Origin: Deltaproteobacteria bacterium
GTDB lineage: Bacteria > Myxococcota_A > Polyangia > Polyangiales > Sandaracinaceae
Reading direction: 5' to 3'
NCBI GenBank assembly: GCA_046342295.1
Contig: JBKDQC010000599.1
Location: 531 to 64,530 of the forward strand
Length of the DNA stretch: 64,000 bases
Shown: one piece after another, positions 13,919 through 59,670 of the stretch
How the letters are laid out: the number at the start of each line of letters is the position of its first letter
Numbering within the stretch: the first letter of the stretch is position 1
Program-made: the position numbers and the translations under genes
Notes under the pieces: model-generated
Seen by the model: only the letters and a program-made list of their open reading frames with translations
Databases searched by the model: none
What the model was told of the DNA's origin: nothing

Positions 13919-14020
13919 GGCGGAGCCTACCACGCGCTCTCGCGCGCCTCGTCCCCGAGGTCGTCGGCGACGCGCCCGCCGTGAGCGAAGGCTCGATGCA
14001 GGAAGGAGAGCGCCGATGCG

Positions 14021-14062
14021 CCCGCACCCGCGCATCGAGGAGCCGAGTGCCACGTGCTCTCA
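14021..14062 (-). repeat. partial copy (stop-proximal arm) of the multi-hairpin repeat family
   Basis: cccgcacccgcgcatcgaggagccgagtgccacgtgctctca aligns with the ends of the copies at 32031..32072 and 57527..57568. The terminal tca is the TauE stop codon. Confidence 0.7.
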
Positions 14063-15013
14063 GGTGGAGGGGTTCTCTCGCGCCACCTTGGTCTGCTCGA
14101 GGACGCGGGCGATCAGCGCCACGAAGGCGACGCCGACGGCGGTCCCTGCGAGCACCCACGGCATCGGCGGCTCGAGCCCGAGCGCACGCGGGATCTCCTG
14201 CCCGAGGATGAAGAACGCCATCGCGACGACGAACCACGCGAAGCCCTTGCGCAGACCCTCCGGCGACAGGCGGCTCGCCAGCGCGCCGCCGCCGACGCTG
14301 CCGACCACGGCGGCGGCCGCCACGAGGCCCGCGAGGGACCAGTCGATGTGCGCGTGCCCCAGGTAGCCCGCGAAGCCCGCGAGCGAGTTCATCGCGATGA
14401 CGACGAGCGAGGTGCCGACCGCCACCTCCATCGAGAGGCCTCCGAGCAGCACGAGCGCGGGGACCACCAGGAAGCCTCCGCCTGCCCCCACGAGGCCCGT
14501 GACCGCGCCCACGACGAGGCCTTCGCCGAGGACCTTGAGGACCGGCAGCGGAGGTAGCGCCACGCCCGGCACGCGATCGGCGCTCCCTGACGCGTGGCCG
14601 TCGGTGCCGCCGGCGGTCTTGCGCCCGCGCATCATCGCGAACGCCGTCACCATCATCATCAACCCGAAGAGGCCGAGCAGCACCGAGCTCGGGATGAAGT
14701 GGGCCACACGCCCCGCTCCGAACGCGCCGAGCATGCCCGCGAGACCGAACACGATCCCCGTGCGCCACTGCACGCGGCCCCTTCGCGCGTGGGGCACGAT
14801 CGCCGCTGCGCTCGTGGTCCCGACCACGAAGAGCGAGACGGCGATCGCGTCGTGCGCCTCCATCCCCAGCACGTAGCGGAGGATGGACAGCGTGAGGATG
14901 GAGCCCCCGCCCCCGAGCAAGCCGAGACAGAGGCCGATGAAGAGCGCGAGGATGGCCGCGAGGACGATCACGGTCGCGGGCTCTTCAAGTCGCGCGCCAA
15001 CGTGAGCGGGCAT
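14060..15013 (-). CDS. sulfite exporter TauE/SafE family membrane protein
   Basis: Two repeated halves carry [10 protein letters not shown] and [16 protein letters not shown] motifs, with about 8 TM helices. Confidence 0.85.
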
Positions 15014-17810: not shown

Positions 17811-18170
17811 TGGGAGCCCACGTCACTCGCCACGATCCGAGTGAGGCGTGCGCGGTTCGGCGGGAGGGGGGCCCCAACGGATGCTGTCGGCGGAGCTCGA
17901 AGCCCGCCAGGCCCTTCCTTCGGACGAGCATGGGAGCCGCTCGGCGCCGGTCGCATCGCGACGGAGGGAGCGCGCGAACTGCGGGAGGCGAGGATCCACG
18001 GCGTCAACGGCGGCCACCGTCGTCCTTCGGCTGCTCCCGCCTCCTGTTGCGGGCCCTCCCCCCTCGCCCTCCCGCAAGCGGGATCTCGTGCTGGGCCGGC
18101 GCGTTGTGCTCTGCACCCGATTCACTCGGCGAGAGGGAGGGGCTGCGGGCGGACCCTCCGCCAAGAAGGA
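17811..18170 (+). repeat. nest of degenerate copies of the multi-hairpin repeat family (opposite orientation)
   Basis: 18117..18148 is identical to the reverse complement of a 32-nt stretch of the 57.4-kb copy. 17811..17870 and 17931..17975 resemble the stop-proximal arm. Confidence 0.6.
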
Positions 18171-18272
18171 GAAGGGTGTGCATCCTCGCAACTGACGCAC
18201 GCGCTGCGGGCGGATCGGTGGTGCGCGGCGAAGACGAGGCGCGGGCCCGCGCCGCAGGGTAGCTTCGGGGGC

Positions 18273-18836
18273 ATGCGGACAAGCGCGCCTCTCCCCTTGG
18301 CCCTCTCGACCGTCGGTCTCTGCCTGCTCGGAGGGTGTGGCGCGGGTGACCCGCGCACGAGCTCCAGCGGCGAGCGCGCGGAGGCGCGGGGCGAGCTCAT
18401 CGCCGAGCCCGCAGACGAGGCCGGCAGCGATCGCGCCTCGAGGGAGGCCGCCGGAGGCCGCGCCGCGTCGTCGTCCGGTGCGGTCGACGACGCGCCGGTC
18501 GCCCTCGAGGCCTCACGGCCACGGCTCACGCTCGTGCGCCTCGCGGACGCGGTCGCGGAGGACGGCCACGGCGAGGCCTCTCTCCGGCCTCGCGCGATCG
18601 CGTTCGACCTCGACGCACGCTTGGTTCCAGCGCGCGCGCTCGACCCAGTCCTTCGCGTCGGCGAGCTCACGCTCCACCACTACAGCCACCCGCGCGTGGG
18701 CACGCTGCGCTTCGTGCTCGACGAAGAGGCCCTGCCACCGGAGGGAGCGGCCGTGTGGGCCCATTACGGCGACGACGAGCGCACGCGCGTCCCCCTCGGC
18801 GCGCTCGAGCGCGCGCACGTCACCGAGGCACCATGA
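18273..18836 (+). CDS. lipoprotein, hypothetical
   Basis: Lipobox LCLLGGC. ATGA overlap with the next gene. Confidence 0.7.
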   Translation: MRTSAPLPLALSTVGLCLLGGCGAGDPRTSSSGERAEARGELIAEPADEAGSDRASREAAGGRAASSSGAVDDAPVALEASRPRLTLVRLADAVAEDGHGEASLRPRAIAFDLDARLVPARALDPVLRVGELTLHHYSHPRVGTLRFVLDEEALPPEGAAVWAHYGDDERTRVPLGALERAHVTEAP

Positions 18837-31939: not shown

Positions 31940-32072
31940 CTCAGAGCATGAGTCACTTGGATTGACTCATGCTCTGACGTTTCTTGCCGGAGGGTCTGGC
32001 CGCAGACCCTCCCTCTCGCCGATTCGAGCCCATGGCACCCGCATCGATCCATCCGAGTGCCACGTGCTCTCA
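31940..32072 (-). repeat. multi-hairpin repeat element, full copy A, ending on the stop codon of the adjacent gene
   Basis: Near-identical to 57407..57568. Hairpins at 31942..31976 (14-bp perfect stem, 7-nt loop) and 31989..32012 (10-bp perfect stem). Confidence 0.85.
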
Positions 32073-32606
32073 CTTCGCCTTGTGCCCGCGGGTCCGGCGC
32101 TGGATTTGCTCACCCAGGAACGCGCCGAAGAGCGAGATCATCACGCCCATCGAGCCGCCGACGAGGTAGGCGATGAGCGAGGGCTCGAAGCCGTCGGGCG
32201 TCGACCACTTGAGGTACACGATGGTCGGGATCGTGGCGACGAGCGCGCCGACAGCCGGCTCGAGGAAGGTCTTTCCGGGAGAGACGAGGCCCACCGCGAC
32301 GCCCCCGACGAACCAGACCGCGACCGAGATCGCGAGGCCCGCGAACCCTTGCGGGTCGTAGGTGGGGATGACCAAGGGCAAGAGCCCGATGATCACGCCC
32401 TGGAGCACGAGGTAGATGACGAACGAGATGGCGACCCACAGGATCGAGAAGCCGTCTTGCTGGTTCGCGCGCGCGGCCTCTTCCTCGGCGGTGTACTCGA
32501 CCTGAACTGCCTCGAGGCGGGCGCCGCACGAGACGCAGCGCTCGGTGTTGGGCTCGTTCTTGAAGCCGCAGACGTGGCAGACGATCGGATCCTGGGTGGA
32601 GGCCAT
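32070..32606 (-). CDS. zinc-ribbon membrane protein, hypothetical
   Basis: N-terminal CHVCG...CVSCG zinc ribbon followed by about 4 TM helices. Confidence 0.72.
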   Translation of the reverse strand: MASTQDPIVCHVCGFKNEPNTERCVSCGARLEAVQVEYTAEEEAARANQQDGFSILWVAISFVIYLVLQGVIIGLLPLVIPTYDPQGFAGLAISVAVWFVGGVAVGLVSPGKTFLEPAVGALVATIPTIVYLKWSTPDGFEPSLIAYLVGGSMGVMISLFGAFLGEQIQRRTRGHKAK

Positions 32607-46844: not shown

Positions 46845-49800
46845 TCAGAGCTGTGAGAGCCCGGTGCGGGCGTCGGCGTTGTTCGGGTCGAGCTGGAGGG
46901 CGCGCTCGAGCTCGCGCCGCGCCGCATCTCGGTTGCCGCTGCGGGCATGCGCTCGCCCGAGACCCACGTGGAACCCTGCGTTGGTGGGCGCGAGCTGGAC
47001 CGCGCGCTCGTAGGCCTGCACCGCACCGGTCGTGTCTCCCGCCGAGAGGCGGGCCGCGCCCAGGCCGCTCCATACGCTCGCGTTCGTCGGCGCGAGGCGG
47101 GTCGCCTGCTCGTAGGCCTGCGCGGCCTCGCGGTAGCGCCTCGCCTGGAAGTGCGCACGAGCCTGGGCCCGGAGGTCGTCGACGCTCGCCGTCCCCCCCG
47201 CCCCGCCGCCCGCGGCGCCAGCGCTCGGCGCACCCGCTCCGCCGGCACCCGCTCCGCCGGCACCCGCTCCGCCGGCACCCGTGCCGCCAGCGCCCGTGCC
47301 GCCAGCGCCCGTGCCGCCAGCGCCCGTGCCGCCAGCGCCCGTGCCGCCAGCGCCCGTGCCAGCGCCCGGGCGAAGTCCCGTGGCCAGCCGGGGTGCACCG
47401 GTGCTCGCGCTGCCGCTGCCTGTCGAGCCCGCCGAACCGCTGCCGGCTGAACCCGAGCCGCTGCCCGTCGAGCCCGCCGAGGTGGCCGATGAACCCGAGC
47501 CGCTCGTCGAGCCGCTGCCCGCCGAAGTGCTCCCGGCCGCACTGGGGCGCATGCCGGACGCCAGGCCACCGCCACCAGAGCCACCACCTGAGCTGCTGCC
47601 GCCACTGGCAGAGCCGCCCGTGCCCGTTCCACTCCCGCTGGGGCGCGTTCCGCTCGCGAGGCCGATGCCGCCGCTTCCGCCCGAGCCGCCAGAGCCCGAG
47701 CCGCCAGAGCCCGAGCCGCCCGAGCCGCCAGAGCCCGAGCCACCAGAGCCCAAGCCGCCAGCGCCCGAGCCACCAGCGCCCGAGCCGCCAGAGCCGGACA
47801 CGGAAGGTGCGGTCGTGGCCACCGCCGCGCTCGCGCGCGGCTGGAGCGTGATCGTCGTCGTGAAATCACTCGCGGGCATCGTCGACACGCTCGACTCGTA
47901 GTGACCTTCGAGCGTGGCGGTCGCCTGCACCAAGGAATCCCGGGGCACTTCGATCGTGACGGGCGCAGTGCCTCGCGGCGTTCCGTTGACCGTGATCGCC
48001 GCGCCAGGCGGGCTCGACTGCAGCGTCACCCGGACCATCGGCGCGGGCGCGGTCGGAGCGGGGACGACGGGAGGAGCAACGGCGACAGGCACCGTCGGGA
48101 CGGGCGTTGCGGGGACCGCCATCGGCGTTGCAGGGATCGCCACCGGCGGCGCGCCCGAGACGGCCGCGAGGATGGTCGTCTGCACCCCGCCGAGGTCCAA
48201 GAACCAAGCCGCGGCGGCACCCGCGACCGTCGTGAAGCCGCAGAAGCCCACGAGGCCGAGAAACACCCACAGGCCGGTGCGTCGCTTCCTCGGTTCCTCG
48301 GGCGTCGCCGCGCTGCTGTACGCGGGCGCAGGCGCTCCGAAACCACTGGCCGGCGCAGGCGCTCCGAACCCGCCCGCAGGCGCACCGAAGCCACCCGCGC
48401 TCGAAGGCGCGCCGAAGCCACCCGCGCTCGAAGGCGCGCCGAAGCCGCCCGCGCCCGAGGCCGCGCCGAAGCCACCCGCGCTCGAAGGCGCACCGAAGCC
48501 GCCCGCGCCCGAGGCCGCGCCGAAGCCACCCGCGCCCGAGGCCGCGCCGAAGCCACCCGCGCCCGAGGCCGCGCCGAAGCCACCCGCGCCCGAGGCCGCG
48601 CCGAAGCCACCCGCGCCCGAAGGCGCACCGAAGCCGCCCGCGCCCGAGGCGGCACCCGCGCTCGAAGGCACACCGAAGCCGCCCGAGGCCGCGCCGAAGC
48701 CACCCGCGCCCGAAGGCGCTCCCGCGCTCGAGGGCGCATCGAAGCCACCCGCACCCGCGGAGCCGCCGGGCCCTTGCGGCGGACCGAACGGCGCACCCTG
48801 TTGCGGGGGCGCCCCGAAGCCCGATGCGGGCGCTCCAAACCCCGCGCCCGATGCGGGCGCTCCGAAGCCGGGTGCGGGCGCCGTCGACGCCTGCGCGGCG
48901 GGTGGGCTCGCGGGCGCTGGCTGCGCTGTCGCTGGGGGAGCGCCCTCGATCTCTTCGAGGCCGCCGAGCGCCCGCAGCTCGTTCACCATGTCCCGCGAGA
49001 CTGCCTTCGTCTCCGCGAAATCATCGAAGTCGAGCGCCGCCGGCTCGGGCGCTGCGGGCTGGCTGGGAGGTGGGGGCGGCACCGCGAGGCCTCCCGACGG
49101 CGGGGCCGACATCTGCCCCGGGACCGTCGTCCGCGGCGGAGGCGGGGGGACGGAGCGCTTCTGACCCGGAACCGGAGGAGGATGAGACTGGCGTTGTGTC
49201 ATGGCGGAACCGTCGGAGTGGGGCGTGGCGAGAAGAGCCTCGGCGCCGGCGAGGTCGAGCGCGGACAACTGTTCCGTGCCGTCGGTACGGGGAGACGGCT
49301 GCGGCACAGCGACCGCGGCGAGGCCGAGAAGCGTTCCGCCGCCCTGCGGCCGGGACTGCGGCGCTCCGAGAGGACCCGTGAGCGGCTCGAGGATGCGGCG
49401 CACCTGCTGGGCCGAGAAAGGTCGGTCGCGCGGATCCTTCTGGAGCAATTGCGCGACGAGCGCGGTCACGACCTGGGGCTGCCCCTCGAGCGCTGGCGCG
49501 GGCTTCTGTCGGTGCTGCTCGAGGATCTCGTCGGCCGTCCCGACGAAGGGGGGCGCGCCGGTCAGGAGCTCGAAGAGCAAGCAGCCCAACGCGTAGAGGT
49601 CGCTACGGAAGCTCACGAGCTTGCCCAGCGCGTGCTCGGGCGACACGTAGGCGGGCTTTCCCACGATCTCGAACACCGACGCCGAGGCGATTCGCATGGC
49701 GACGCCCGTGTCGATCAGGCGGATGTCGCCATCGGGCTGCACGATGACGTGCTCGGGCGAGAGATCGCGCTGGAGCAGGCCGGCACGGTGAACCTCGTCG

Positions 49801-57406: not shown

Positions 57407-57568
57407 TCAGAGCATGAGTCACTTGGATTGACTCATGCTCTGACGTTTCTTTCCGGAGGGTCTGGCCGCAGCCCCTCCCTCTCGCCGAGTGAATCGGCGA
57501 GAGCCTCCCTCCCGCCGATGCGAGCCCGTGGCACCCGCATCGATCCATCCGAGTGCCACGGGCTCTCA
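57407..57568 (-). repeat. multi-hairpin repeat element, full copy B (with an extra roughly 30-bp hairpin insertion), ending on the stop codon of the adjacent gene
   Basis: Hairpins at 57408..57442, 57455..57478 and 57479..57503. The terminal tca at 57566..57568 is the stop codon of the ORF 57566..58390. Confidence 0.85.
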
Positions 57569-58390
57569 GAAGCTCCCCGAGATGCCGCCGACCCGGAGCG
57601 AGAGGCGCACACCCGTGCGCGACTCGTAGCGCGCGGGCCTCGCCTCGACCTCGCCAGCCTCGAGGCCGCTGACGAGCTGGAGGACGCCGACGAGGATCTC
57701 CACCGCGCCGAGCGCCCCGAGCGTGATCTGCGTGAGCTCCGCGTCGCTCACGGCCAAGCCCACGATGCCGGTGAAGAGCCCCGTGGCGAGGCCCGAGAGG
57801 CCTTGCGCGACGGAGAAGAGTCGCGCGTCACGCGCGCGGTCGGCGTCCGCCACCACGAAGCCCTCGAAGCGCGCCACGTCCTCGAGGCCAGGCCGACCCG
57901 CCGCGCGGAGCGCGCTCCACTGGTCGTGGCGGCGCTCCTCGGTCGAGCGCGAGACCGAGCTCAGGATGCCCGTCGCGAGCGAGAGCGCGCCGAGCTGGGC
58001 GGGGAGAATCGCGAGGATGGGCAGGAGCCCGGAGCCGTCGTCGAGCGCGAAGAACACGGGCGTCGCGCCGATCCCGAGCACACCGATCACGCAGCCGAGC
58101 ACGGCGGAGATGCTGCGCGACCGCGCGGCCGCGTCCGCATCGGCAGCGAGCATCGCGTCGAGCTCGCTCACCCGCAGCTCGAGGCCGAAGGGGTCCGACA
58201 GGGCCCGCAGGGCCGAGACCGGCGCGAGGTTCTCCTCCATGATTGGCGCGCCCTCGTCCTCGATCTCGGTGCGCGCCCTCGGAGCCTCGGGGATGGGCGG
58301 ATCCGAGCCCGCCGGCTCGTCCGCCGCCACGCCGAATACCGACGCCTGGGTGGCGAGCAGGGCGAACGCCAAGAGCGCGAGGGAGCGCAT
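57566..58390 (-). CDS. hypothetical secreted/membrane protein
   Basis: Signal peptide MRSLALLAFALLATQASVFG plus several hydrophobic segments. It starts 7 nt after the stop of the upstream gene. Confidence 0.62.
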   Translation of the reverse strand: MRSLALLAFALLATQASVFGVAADEPAGSDPPIPEAPRARTEIEDEGAPIMEENLAPVSALRALSDPFGLELRVSELDAMLAADADAAARSRSISAVLGCVIGVLGIGATPVFFALDDGSGLLPILAILPAQLGALSLATGILSSVSRSTEERRHDQWSALRAAGRPGLEDVARFEGFVVADADRARDARLFSVAQGLSGLATGLFTGIVGLAVSDAELTQITLGALGAVEILVGVLQLVSGLEAGEVEARPARYESRTGVRLSLRVGGISGSF

Positions 58391-58397
58391 CGGTCGC

Positions 58398-59483
58398 TCA
58401 GTCCCCGAGCAGGTACGCGAACACGAGCGGAGCGACGATGGTCGCGTCGCTCTGGATCATGAACTTCGGAGTGTGCACGTCGAGCTTGCCCCAGGTGATC
58501 TTCTCGTTGGGGACCGCGCCCGAGTAGCCGCCGTAGCTCGTCACCGCGTCGCTGATCTGCGCGAAGTAGCCCCAGAAGGGCACATCCTCCATCTGGAGAT
58601 CCTGGATCATCGTGGGCACGGCGCAGATCGCGAAATCCCCGGCGATGCCGCCGCCGATCTGGAAGAAGCCGACGCTCGGTGCCGAGAGCTCGAGGTTGCC
58701 GCCGCGCTCCTTCTTGGTCTTGCCGGACGCGCCCTTCTTGGCCGCCTTCTCGGCCTTCTTGCGGGCCTTGGCCTCCGCGGCCCCCTTGGCGGCGTTGTAG
58801 CCGCTCGCGTCGAGGTACCACCGCATGAGGTGGTCCATCTGCTCGGTGCCGCTCTTGACGACCTGGTGGTGCGCCACCTCGCCACGCCACACGGCGCCGG
58901 CGAACATGTTGCCGGTCGTCGAGTCCTCCCAGCCGGGAGAGTAGACGGGGATGCCCATCTCCTTGGCCGCGAACATCCAGCTGTCCTCCTTGGGGATCTG
59001 GAAGTGTTTCTCGAGCGACTTGTCCGAGAGGACCTCGAAGAGGAACTCGCTCTCGAACTTCCGCTCGCCCTTGTCGGCCGCCTTGCTCCACGCCTTGATC
59101 AGGCGCTTCTCGAGGTGGCGCATGATCGTCTCGGGGATGCACGTGTCGGTGACGCGGTTGTAGCCCTGGTCGTAGAGCGTCTTCTCGTCCTCGGCGCGCA
59201 GGCCGCGGTAGTCCTCGATGATGCGGTAGTCGTTGGCCGCGAGGAGGTTGAACACGTCCTCCTCGAGGTTCGCGCCGGTGCAACAGATCGCGTGGACGTA
59301 GCCCTTGCGGATGAGCCGCCCGAGGATGCGGCCGATGCGCGCGGTGCTCATCGCGCCCGCGAGCGTGACCATCATCTTGCCGCCCGACTCGATGTGCTTC
59401 TCGTATGCCTTCGCGGCCGCGACCACCTCGCGGCTGTTGAAGTGCAGGTAGTGGCGCTCCATGAACTTGCGGACGGTCGTCAT
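58398..59483 (-). CDS. deoxyhypusine synthase-like (homospermidine synthase-like) protein
   Basis: TLAGAMSTA, CTGANLEEDVF, GGGIAGDF, and the catalytic-lysine context EKITWGKLD. A GAGGAG Shine-Dalgarno sequence precedes the ATG at 59483. Confidence 0.88.
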   Translation of the reverse strand: MTTVRKFMERHYLHFNSREVVAAAKAYEKHIESGGKMMVTLAGAMSTARIGRILGRLIRKGYVHAICCTGANLEEDVFNLLAANDYRIIEDYRGLRAEDEKTLYDQGYNRVTDTCIPETIMRHLEKRLIKAWSKAADKGERKFESEFLFEVLSDKSLEKHFQIPKEDSWMFAAKEMGIPVYSPGWEDSTTGNMFAGAVWRGEVAHHQVVKSGTEQMDHLMRWYLDASGYNAAKGAAEAKARKKAEKAAKKGASGKTKKERGGNLELSAPSVGFFQIGGGIAGDFAICAVPTMIQDLQMEDVPFWGYFAQISDAVTSYGGYSGAVPNEKITWGKLDVHTPKFMIQSDATIVAPLVFAYLLGD

Positions 59484-59600
59484 CTCGATCTCCTCGCTGC
59501 GAGAACCGCGCCGGCGCGCGGGGCGCGCGACCATAGCTCGAAACAGTCCTCCTCGAAGAGCCGACGGGATGGCTCGCCCACGCAAGACCCCGCGGCACGT

Positions 59601-59670
59601 GCCCGAGCGCTTCGGCCCGAGCGCGTCGGCCCGAGCGCTTCGGCCCGAGCGCTTCGGCCCGAGCGCCGTC
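59601..59670. repeat. 5 tandem copies of a 14-bp GC-rich unit GCCCGAGCGCTTCG, with an AGCGCT palindrome in three of the units
   Basis: gcccgagcgcttcg gcccgagcgcgtcg gcccgagcgcttcg gcccgagcgcttcg gcccgagcgccgtc. Confidence 0.9.

Follow-up and report, generated by a model that had tools for sequence, protein, structure and literature searches.

Copies of a non-coding repeat end on stop codons in the window

The window, by which we mean the whole stretch of 64,000 nucleotides analysed here, holds two intact copies (A and B) and two decayed copies (C and D) of a non-coding repeat. The initial annotation had placed three of these at 31940-32072, 57407-57568 and 14021-14062, and on re-reading, both coordinates and sequences proved correct. 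In each of the three, the plus-strand triplet tca (32070-32072, 57566-57568 and 14060-14062) serves a long minus-strand ORF as its stop, as had been proposed, and all three ORFs have a coding-like G+C content by codon position (GC3 0.94-0.96, GC2 about 0.5). Copy A lies on the minus strand at 31941-32072, where its 126-bp body is complete and carries both 3-bp flanking repeats (nhmmer E=5e-39). Its left repeat, 32070-32072, is the TGA stop of an ORF for a Zn-ribbon membrane protein (32070-32606, GC3 0.94), and its right TGA occupies 31941-31943. Copy B, at 57407-57568 on the minus strand, has a complete 156-bp body and both TGA repeats, the left one being the stop (57566-57568) of a gene at 57566-58390 whose 274-aa product has a signal-peptide-like N-terminus. 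Copy B is found in the identical arrangement, at the same gene, in L001-L005, which are contigs from other samples (NCBI, JGI and Logan). Copy C (14021-14062, minus strand) has decayed to a remnant with the left terminal repeat, and its triplet at 14060-14062 is the TGA stop of TauE (14060-15013). Copy D was found with an nhmmer profile built from 11 full copies and is a decayed right-hand part on the plus strand (18117-18205, E=2e-12), consisting of the 3' half of hairpin HPx, hairpin HP2 and a degenerate HP3; it lies 68 nt upstream of an ATG at 18274 and does not sit on a stop codon.

Copies A and B had been described as near-identical apart from one insertion, and indeed their shared blocks are 98% and 93% identical and a single 30-nt block differs. 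Read in gene sense, A, B and C all start with TGAGAGC(A/C)CGTGGCACTCGG, again as annotated. The 20-nt stop-proximal motif occurs three times in the window and the hairpin with a 14-bp stem and 7-nt loop exactly twice; the motif count was reached in 0 of 100 dinucleotide-preserving shuffles and the hairpin count likewise in 0 of 100 shuffles.

The window also contains tandem repeats. Long in-register ones of 27 nt (about 16 units) at 48310-48770 and of 15 nt at 47176-47810 are in a region in which our crude gene caller called nothing and which is probably a gene for a proline/alanine-rich repetitive protein. A 14-nt unit, GCCCGAGCGCTTCG, is repeated in tandem about five times at 59601-59670, just upstream of a deoxyhypusine-synthase-like gene (58398-59534, minus strand).

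Each terminus is predicted to fold with its own partner

The body of the element reads GAGCAC...ATGCTC, so that both ends begin GAGCA, and it starts right after the stop codon. It contains no ORF attributable to the element. Bodies of 126, 156 and about 200 bp (range 126-202) were found, and these size classes, which differ by optional internal modules, recur in more than one genome. The ends form 17-nt imperfect terminal inverted repeats: in A, the start GAGCACGTGGCACTCGG (32053-32069, minus strand) matches the reverse-complemented end GAGCATGAGTCACTTGG at 13 of 17 positions, and across eight copies the match is 11-13 of 16-17 positions.

Folding of the minus strand predicts a series of hairpins. 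HP1 (32026-32069) is a 15-16-bp hairpin made of the left terminal repeat and an adjacent inverted partner, and it begins at the first base 3' of the TGA. HP2 (31989-32012) is a G+C-rich hairpin, GGAGGGTCTG/CAGACCCTCC, whose 10-bp stem had been called perfect; this is so in A, whereas B has one mismatch. An A-rich spacer, GGCAAGAAACG in gene sense (31978-31988, minus strand), is kept in 11 of 11 full copies and, read on the plus strand, is a T-rich tract 3' of HP3. HP3 itself (31944-31974, minus strand) has a 12-bp stem, extended to 15 pairs with the flanking TCA/TGA, and the right terminal inverted repeat (31944-31960) forms the outer arm. The 156-bp subtype has an extra hairpin, HPx (CTCTCGCCG/CGGCGAGAG; 57479-57503, minus strand), within the additional 30-nt block of B, for which an alternative predicted pairing gives a GGAGG loop. 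In the predicted folds each terminus pairs with its own adjacent partner, forming HP1 and HP3, and not with the opposite terminus. The folding z-scores against shuffled controls were -7.4 for A and -8.0 for B. It had also been noted that no U-tract follows the hairpins. This is correct in gene sense, but on the opposite strand HP3 is followed by CGTTTCTTGCC, as detected by a terminator scan in both A and B.

The HPx loop carries further sequence in several copies. At L090:56-1779, and also in L014, a 1.72-kb ISKra4-family IS sits in the HPx loop, flanked by 13-bp direct repeats, CCGATTCACTCGG. Its transposase in L090, of 551 aa, matches NCBIfam NF033572 (E=7e-55). At the left edge of copy D (18108-18128) are the last 9 nt of an ISKra4-like IS end, with the junction of TCTGCACCC and GATTCACTCGG. 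Since the IS-end/loop junction is the same in copy D, this IS may prefer the HPx loop. In L024, L033 and L051, which are of the ~200-bp subtype, the same loop holds a further insertion of about 45 nt, CCGGTGATCGGACACCGCGCGCAGGCCCAAGGCCGAGCACGGGGAGAAC. This points to the HPx loop as a favoured place for nested insertion or for gaining modules.

The family is dispersed among related genomes

We scanned a genome collection with an 18-nt left-end probe from which the TG of TGA was left out on purpose. The scan returned at least 59 loci, of which at least 16 are true family members in the Sandaracinaceae MAG JBILLJ01. The remaining 43 listed loci are chance matches within coding sequence of unrelated taxa and serve as a control: none of the 43 is preceded by TG. 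A metagenome scan with an HP3 probe added 18 further contigs, many of them ending inside the repeat. At least three related genomes thus carry multiple, scattered copies of the family. Whether taken from one genome or from different ones, full copies are nearly the same in sequence while their flanks are unrelated, and there are many deletion derivatives as well as solo HP3 units with sharp edges.

A 3-bp direct repeat flanks the element and related loci are empty

In both A and B, TGA stands on either side of the body. We performed an unbiased scan for GAG...CTC inverted-repeat pairs with identical flanking TNA triplets, which recovered eight complete copies and nothing else. TGA/TGA flanks were also seen around L089, the diverged copy L021b and the HP1-deleted copy L032b, and in at least 10 copies altogether. 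L040 has TCA/TCA flanks instead, and its right TCA is the TGA stop of a convergent 376-codon E1-alpha ORF (GC3 0.95). Because this triplet is the genuine stop of a convergent gene, it fits a duplicated target and not a terminal triplet borne by the element. Exceptions to the direct repeat are L083 (TCA left, TGA right), L051 (TGA/CGA) and a few drifted right-hand triplets (CGA, GGA), and the solo HP3 units L079, L080 and L081 have flanks of TCA/TGA or TCA/CGA, with no direct repeats. The reconstructed target is (C/G)TGA-G, with C at position -1 in 14 of 19 copies and, by manual count, G after the triplet in most. In L082 (1-30), two elements stand head to tail with one common TGA, ...ACTCATGCTC TGA GAGCACGTGG, which is either a tandem insertion into the regenerated CTGAG target or a dimer junction.

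Orthologous loci show the site as it is without the element. Zn-ribbon orthologs with 80-87% amino-acid identity in six other contigs end KK(A)* at the same position, and in all six the TGA is followed directly by unrelated spacer, without the element. In one of these comparisons, L091, the alignment with the window also takes in the intergenic region downstream and the gene beyond it. There, L091 reads ...GCC TGA GCCGCG, whereas the window reads ...AAG TGA, then the 126-bp body and a second TGA, then GCCCGT. The single TGA of L091 against the TGA-element-TGA of the window indicates that copy A is the element plus 3 bp inserted in a pre-existing stop codon. At the locus of copy C, the TauE stop and the codons preceding it are homologous to the L096 ortholog (local alignment 24.5 versus a shuffle maximum of 14). 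We therefore ruled out that copy C truncated TauE and made a new stop, since the stop position is common to the L096 ortholog. As for the surroundings of this locus, TauE and the gene for a sigma-54 activator overlap by 14 nt in L094 and L095, a third relative has a methyltransferase gene between them, and in the window the 140-nt spacer at 13919-14059 holds copy C and a stretch with weak similarity to the long 3' end of TauE.

Copies are enriched on stop codons and oriented relative to them

Our census sample was the 21 left-end junctions among the matches listed; L024 ends at a contig edge, leaving 20 classifiable. Fifteen of these 20 copies, among the matches listed, lie exactly on real stop codons, 14 of them in forward orientation at GC3-supported genes and one (L040) in reverse. 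Of the non-stop copies, L056 is on an in-frame TGA 9 nt past the real stop, three (L014, L032a and L051) are found immediately upstream of divergent genes, and one (L083) is in an intergenic region. The L032 contig (1-500) holds a gene for a 107-aa secreted protein with a reverse copy that ends 1 nt before the ATG and, on the TGA stop, a copy that lacks HP1; with copies at both ATG and stop, this gene is bracketed by two elements.

We estimated the availability of sites from a simple GC3-based gene call over about 170 kb, which gave 129 TGA stops; TGA/TCA occurred 215 times in short intergenic spacers, 631 times in all uncalled sequence and 2029 times inside genes. From stops plus non-coding TGA/TCA, 17-37% of copies would be expected on stops, as against the 75% observed among the matches listed (n=20; binomial p=7e-4 to 2e-8). 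The enrichment becomes borderline (p=0.055) if half of the intergenic or spacer sites are taken as forbidden, as in promoters.

The orientation is strongly skewed. At 19 of the 21 junctions the triplet before the left end is TGA, and at two it is TCA (p=2e-4, among the matches listed), and the five non-stop copies among these matches divide into four TGA and one TCA, too few to decide. The sole reverse copy among the matches listed, L040, lies between two co-directional genes.

The repeat is probably a MITE

We conclude that the repeat is probably a non-autonomous DNA transposon (MITE) of Sandaracinaceae with a TNA target duplication, for which stop codons are safe sites. The element is non-coding and shorter than 300 bp, it has terminal inverted repeats and a duplication of fixed length, and unrelated flanks and empty sites accompany it, all of which are features by which a MITE is recognised. 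Among the options offered by the initial annotation, a REP/MITE-like element with stop-linked insertion is thus the one that the data favour, given the dispersal, the inverted repeats, the 3-bp duplication, the empty sites and the majority of listed copies on stops. That the element had not been recognised as a described family also stands, as we found no match in Rfam, in a plasmid BLAST, in MITE reviews and surveys or in literature searches. It is a previously uncatalogued family, but of a known kind of element.

The IS1031 subgroup in the ISfinder table has GAG ends and a 3-bp repeat, and its DDE transposase is often encoded as orfA/orfB with a -1 frameshift. The element agrees with this subgroup at the DNA level, having TNA flanks (TGA or TCA) with a 3-bp repeat and GAG termini. 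A TNA preference with an exclusive 3-bp direct repeat has been reported for IS1031-subgroup elements (PMC12016507), and the IS5-family IS1237 has GAG... termini (GAGGTGG...) and a TTA/TAA repeat (PMC2516522). We propose that a DDE transposase acting in trans, making 3-bp staggered cuts at 5'-TNA-3', would move the element, and that this enzyme might come from the IS1031 (or IS427-like) subgroup of the IS5 family. The expected partner would be an ORF-bearing IS5/IS1031-type DDE element ending in GAGCAYGWGKCAC with TNA flanks. About 640 kb of sequence contained no autonomous element with matching ends, and inverted-repeat pairs at most 2.5 kb apart gave only MITEs; BLAST for the partner against plasmids gave no match, and viral contigs gave one chance match in coding sequence and nothing else. 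Because no partner IS was found, the IS1031-like DDE transposase is one that we infer. The 551-aa transposase in L090 was considered as a partner and rejected, since it is of the ISKra4 family, with GTGCAG... ends and a 13-bp duplication, and is nested inside a MITE copy. We also dropped an integron attC site, a group II intron and IS110-type targeting; copies are single and dispersed, (C/G)TGA-G is all that the flanks have in common, and intron-like ends are absent.

How would such an element come to lie exactly on stop codons? At an invaded stop, the duplication would put an intact TGA back in frame. TGA is the stop in 47 of the 50 genes called in the window (about 94%), in a genome of about 70% G+C. 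Because TGA ends so many genes and the duplication restores it in frame, insertion in a stop codon would leave the protein unchanged. Insertions in coding sequence or promoters would be purged, and with purging elsewhere and harmless stops, copies would accumulate exactly on stop codons. In our reading, what ties the copies to stop codons is target chemistry together with purifying selection, and the stop codon itself is not what is recognised. Once inserted, the element would make up the beginning of the transcribed 3' UTR, with three or four stable hairpins. The mRNA 3' end may be protected in this way, and HP3 with the opposite-strand T-tract may stop convergent antisense transcription.

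Polarity, RNA-level roles and rival mechanisms

The strong polarity counts against the MITE reading and stays unexplained by it, because a transposase that cuts TNA symmetrically should give the two orientations 1:1. Selection could possibly account for the forward copies, in which HP1 comes after the stop and the HP3/T-tract terminator points towards arriving antisense transcripts. L040, lying between co-directional genes, is the opposite of what selection on terminator polarity predicts. The fold with one hairpin per terminus is also unusual for DDE MITEs and is more like that of elements which move as single-stranded DNA. Together, the polarity and the terminal hairpins could reflect an unusual insertion mechanism and not a side effect of selection: either an asymmetric read-out of the middle base of the target, which would set the orientation, or a hairpin, single-strand or core-homology integration. 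Or else the family might be a domesticated, orientation-specific 3'-end module that hosts keep on stop codons so as to control termination or antisense read-through; we regard all of this as a tentative and rather unlikely possibility. The proposal that an HUH/Y1 enzyme moves the element as single-stranded DNA, as for RAYT-associated REP/REPIN and IS200/IS605 palindromes, would fix its orientation 3' of (S)TGA and make the right TGA part of the element. Terminal hairpins that pair with their own partners and the solo HP3 units keep this model as a minority rival. It would explain the constant relation to TGA at 19 of 21 listed junctions, the similar hairpins at both termini on the same strand, right triplets that drift (CGA, GGA) as element sequence does, the variant triplet of L083 on the left only, and a solo HP3 palindrome that includes TCA...TGA. 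However, L040 has TCA at both ends, the right one being a genuine convergent stop, and this model needs a coincidence there; the true inverted repeats run from the first base, so that a guide sequence would not fit on the 5' side of the left hairpin; and there is no GTAG-like conserved unpaired tetranucleotide. We consider movement by an HUH/Y1 enzyme quite unlikely.

By whatever means it moves, the element could be kept at stops in one orientation because it is useful to the host as a portable 3'-UTR module, as a block to 3' exonucleases, as insulation against antisense transcription or as a modulator of termination or ribosome release. Such a role, which we judge unlikely, would be in keeping with the 14 forward copies against one reverse at stops among the matches listed, with the A-rich/T-rich tract by HP3 that all full copies keep despite about 70% G+C, with the very high predicted stability of the hairpins (z about -7 to -8) and with HP1 starting 0 nt after the UGA. 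In E. coli, REP hairpins at most about 15 nt from a stop codon reportedly reduce the expression of the gene upstream by way of stalled ribosomes and trans-translation (Liang, Rudd and Deutscher 2015). Against a host function, decay is tolerated in copies C and D, as are many deletion derivatives, orthologs fare well where the element is absent, and the reverse copy L040 puts the terminator in sense between co-directional genes, where it is predicted to be counter-selected. Compensatory change was seen in only 1 of 50 predicted pairs, in a test that has no power because the copies are nearly identical, and so the hairpin structure has its support solely from thermodynamics. The suggestion of a 3'-UTR stabiliser or terminator module is possible as a consequence of insertion, but the only terminator-like signal points against the host gene. 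We rejected an intrinsic terminator of the host gene, as no T-run follows any hairpin in gene sense and the motif is on the opposite strand only. Any stabiliser, terminator or translation-termination effect of the element would be a putative one.

A discrete sRNA, whether 3'-UTR-derived or an antisense ar14-like RNA, or a UGA recoding signal (SECIS or readthrough) is highly improbable. In searches of Rfam, only a tRNA in the window reached the gathering threshold and the element gave no such match, and permissive thresholds returned weak matches only (microRNA, lncRNA, ar14, Rhizobiales-2 and Acido-1), all far below threshold. The best of the sub-threshold matches, and the point in favour of an sRNA, was that of the antisense strand of B to the alphaproteobacterial sRNA ar14 (57448-57570, plus strand; 24.5 bits, where the gathering score is 58.8; E=0.006). 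The resemblance arises because two hairpins carry CCUCC-type loops, which in gene sense read GGAGG and are Shine-Dalgarno-like, and the ar14-type 3' hairpin has no U-tail. We treat the match as resemblance and not as membership. The suggestion of a 3'-UTR-derived sRNA found no support, as there was neither a promoter-like site nor an Rfam match at the gathering score. A hairpin directly 3' of the UGA would suit a recoding signal, but the host genes are functionally unrelated. Orthologs stop at the same TGA without the element, so a recoding role is not needed; on these grounds we ruled out a SECIS or other recoding signal.

Discussion

If the repeat is indeed a MITE, it would provide a clear case from nature of a transposon confined to stop codons by a TNA duplication together with purifying selection, and in high-G+C bacteria TGA stops would be among the few harmless landing sites. 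Hundreds of genes would be marked with a very stable hairpin that opens the 3' UTR, providing a ready set for work on mRNA decay, termination and ribosome release. The annotation of myxobacterial MAGs is affected as well, because the repeats break assemblies and many metagenome contigs end within them. The polarity, if mechanistic, would be of interest to transposition biochemists. Literature searches for stop-codon-targeting bacterial MITEs or for myxobacterial MITEs gave nothing pertinent.

Like MITEs of the IS5 family (IS1031/IS427-like), the Sandaracinaceae element has a 3-bp repeat at TNA, a GAG start, short imperfect terminal inverted repeats, no coding capacity, many dispersed copies and empty sites in relatives. 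It differs from them in that no cognate transposase-bearing element was found in about 640 kb or in plasmids, in its strong polarity to the middle base and in having its own hairpin at each terminus, and accumulation on stop codons is not mentioned in the MITE reviews searched. With the RAYT-associated REP/BIME/REPIN sequences of proteobacteria it shares G+C-rich palindromes downstream of genes, mosaic units with optional modules, tandem arrangements (L082) and likely effects on mRNA 3' ends. Unlike these, it has a 3-bp duplication and terminal inverted repeats, it has no GTAG-type tetranucleotide, its TCAG/CTGA being paired within HP3, and it lies exactly on the stop codon, whereas REP sequences are merely nearby. 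Elements of the IS200/IS605-derived palindrome type have subterminal hairpins, lack terminal inverted repeats and a duplication, and are oriented in one way 3' of a target of 4-5 nt. This fixed orientation is largely matched (19 of 21 junctions among the matches listed), but the inverted repeats, the duplication and terminal hairpins without space for a guide set the element apart from them.

SPRITE and Correia/NEMIS, whose hairpins are terminator-like or processed by RNase, are also MITEs with a terminator-like hairpin and T-tract that are co-transcribed with their neighbours. Correia elements have a TA target as opposed to TGA, and in almost every copy of the Sandaracinaceae element the terminator-like module is directed against the host gene; in sequence and host taxon, too, it differs from SPRITE and Correia/NEMIS. 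In the IS481 family, the target NCTAGN is duplicated and supplies a stop codon (ISLxc2, PMC2516522), so that there, too, a duplicated target acts as a stop. The stop of IS481-family elements serves the transposase's own frame, whereas the Sandaracinaceae element preserves the stop of the host gene that it has invaded.
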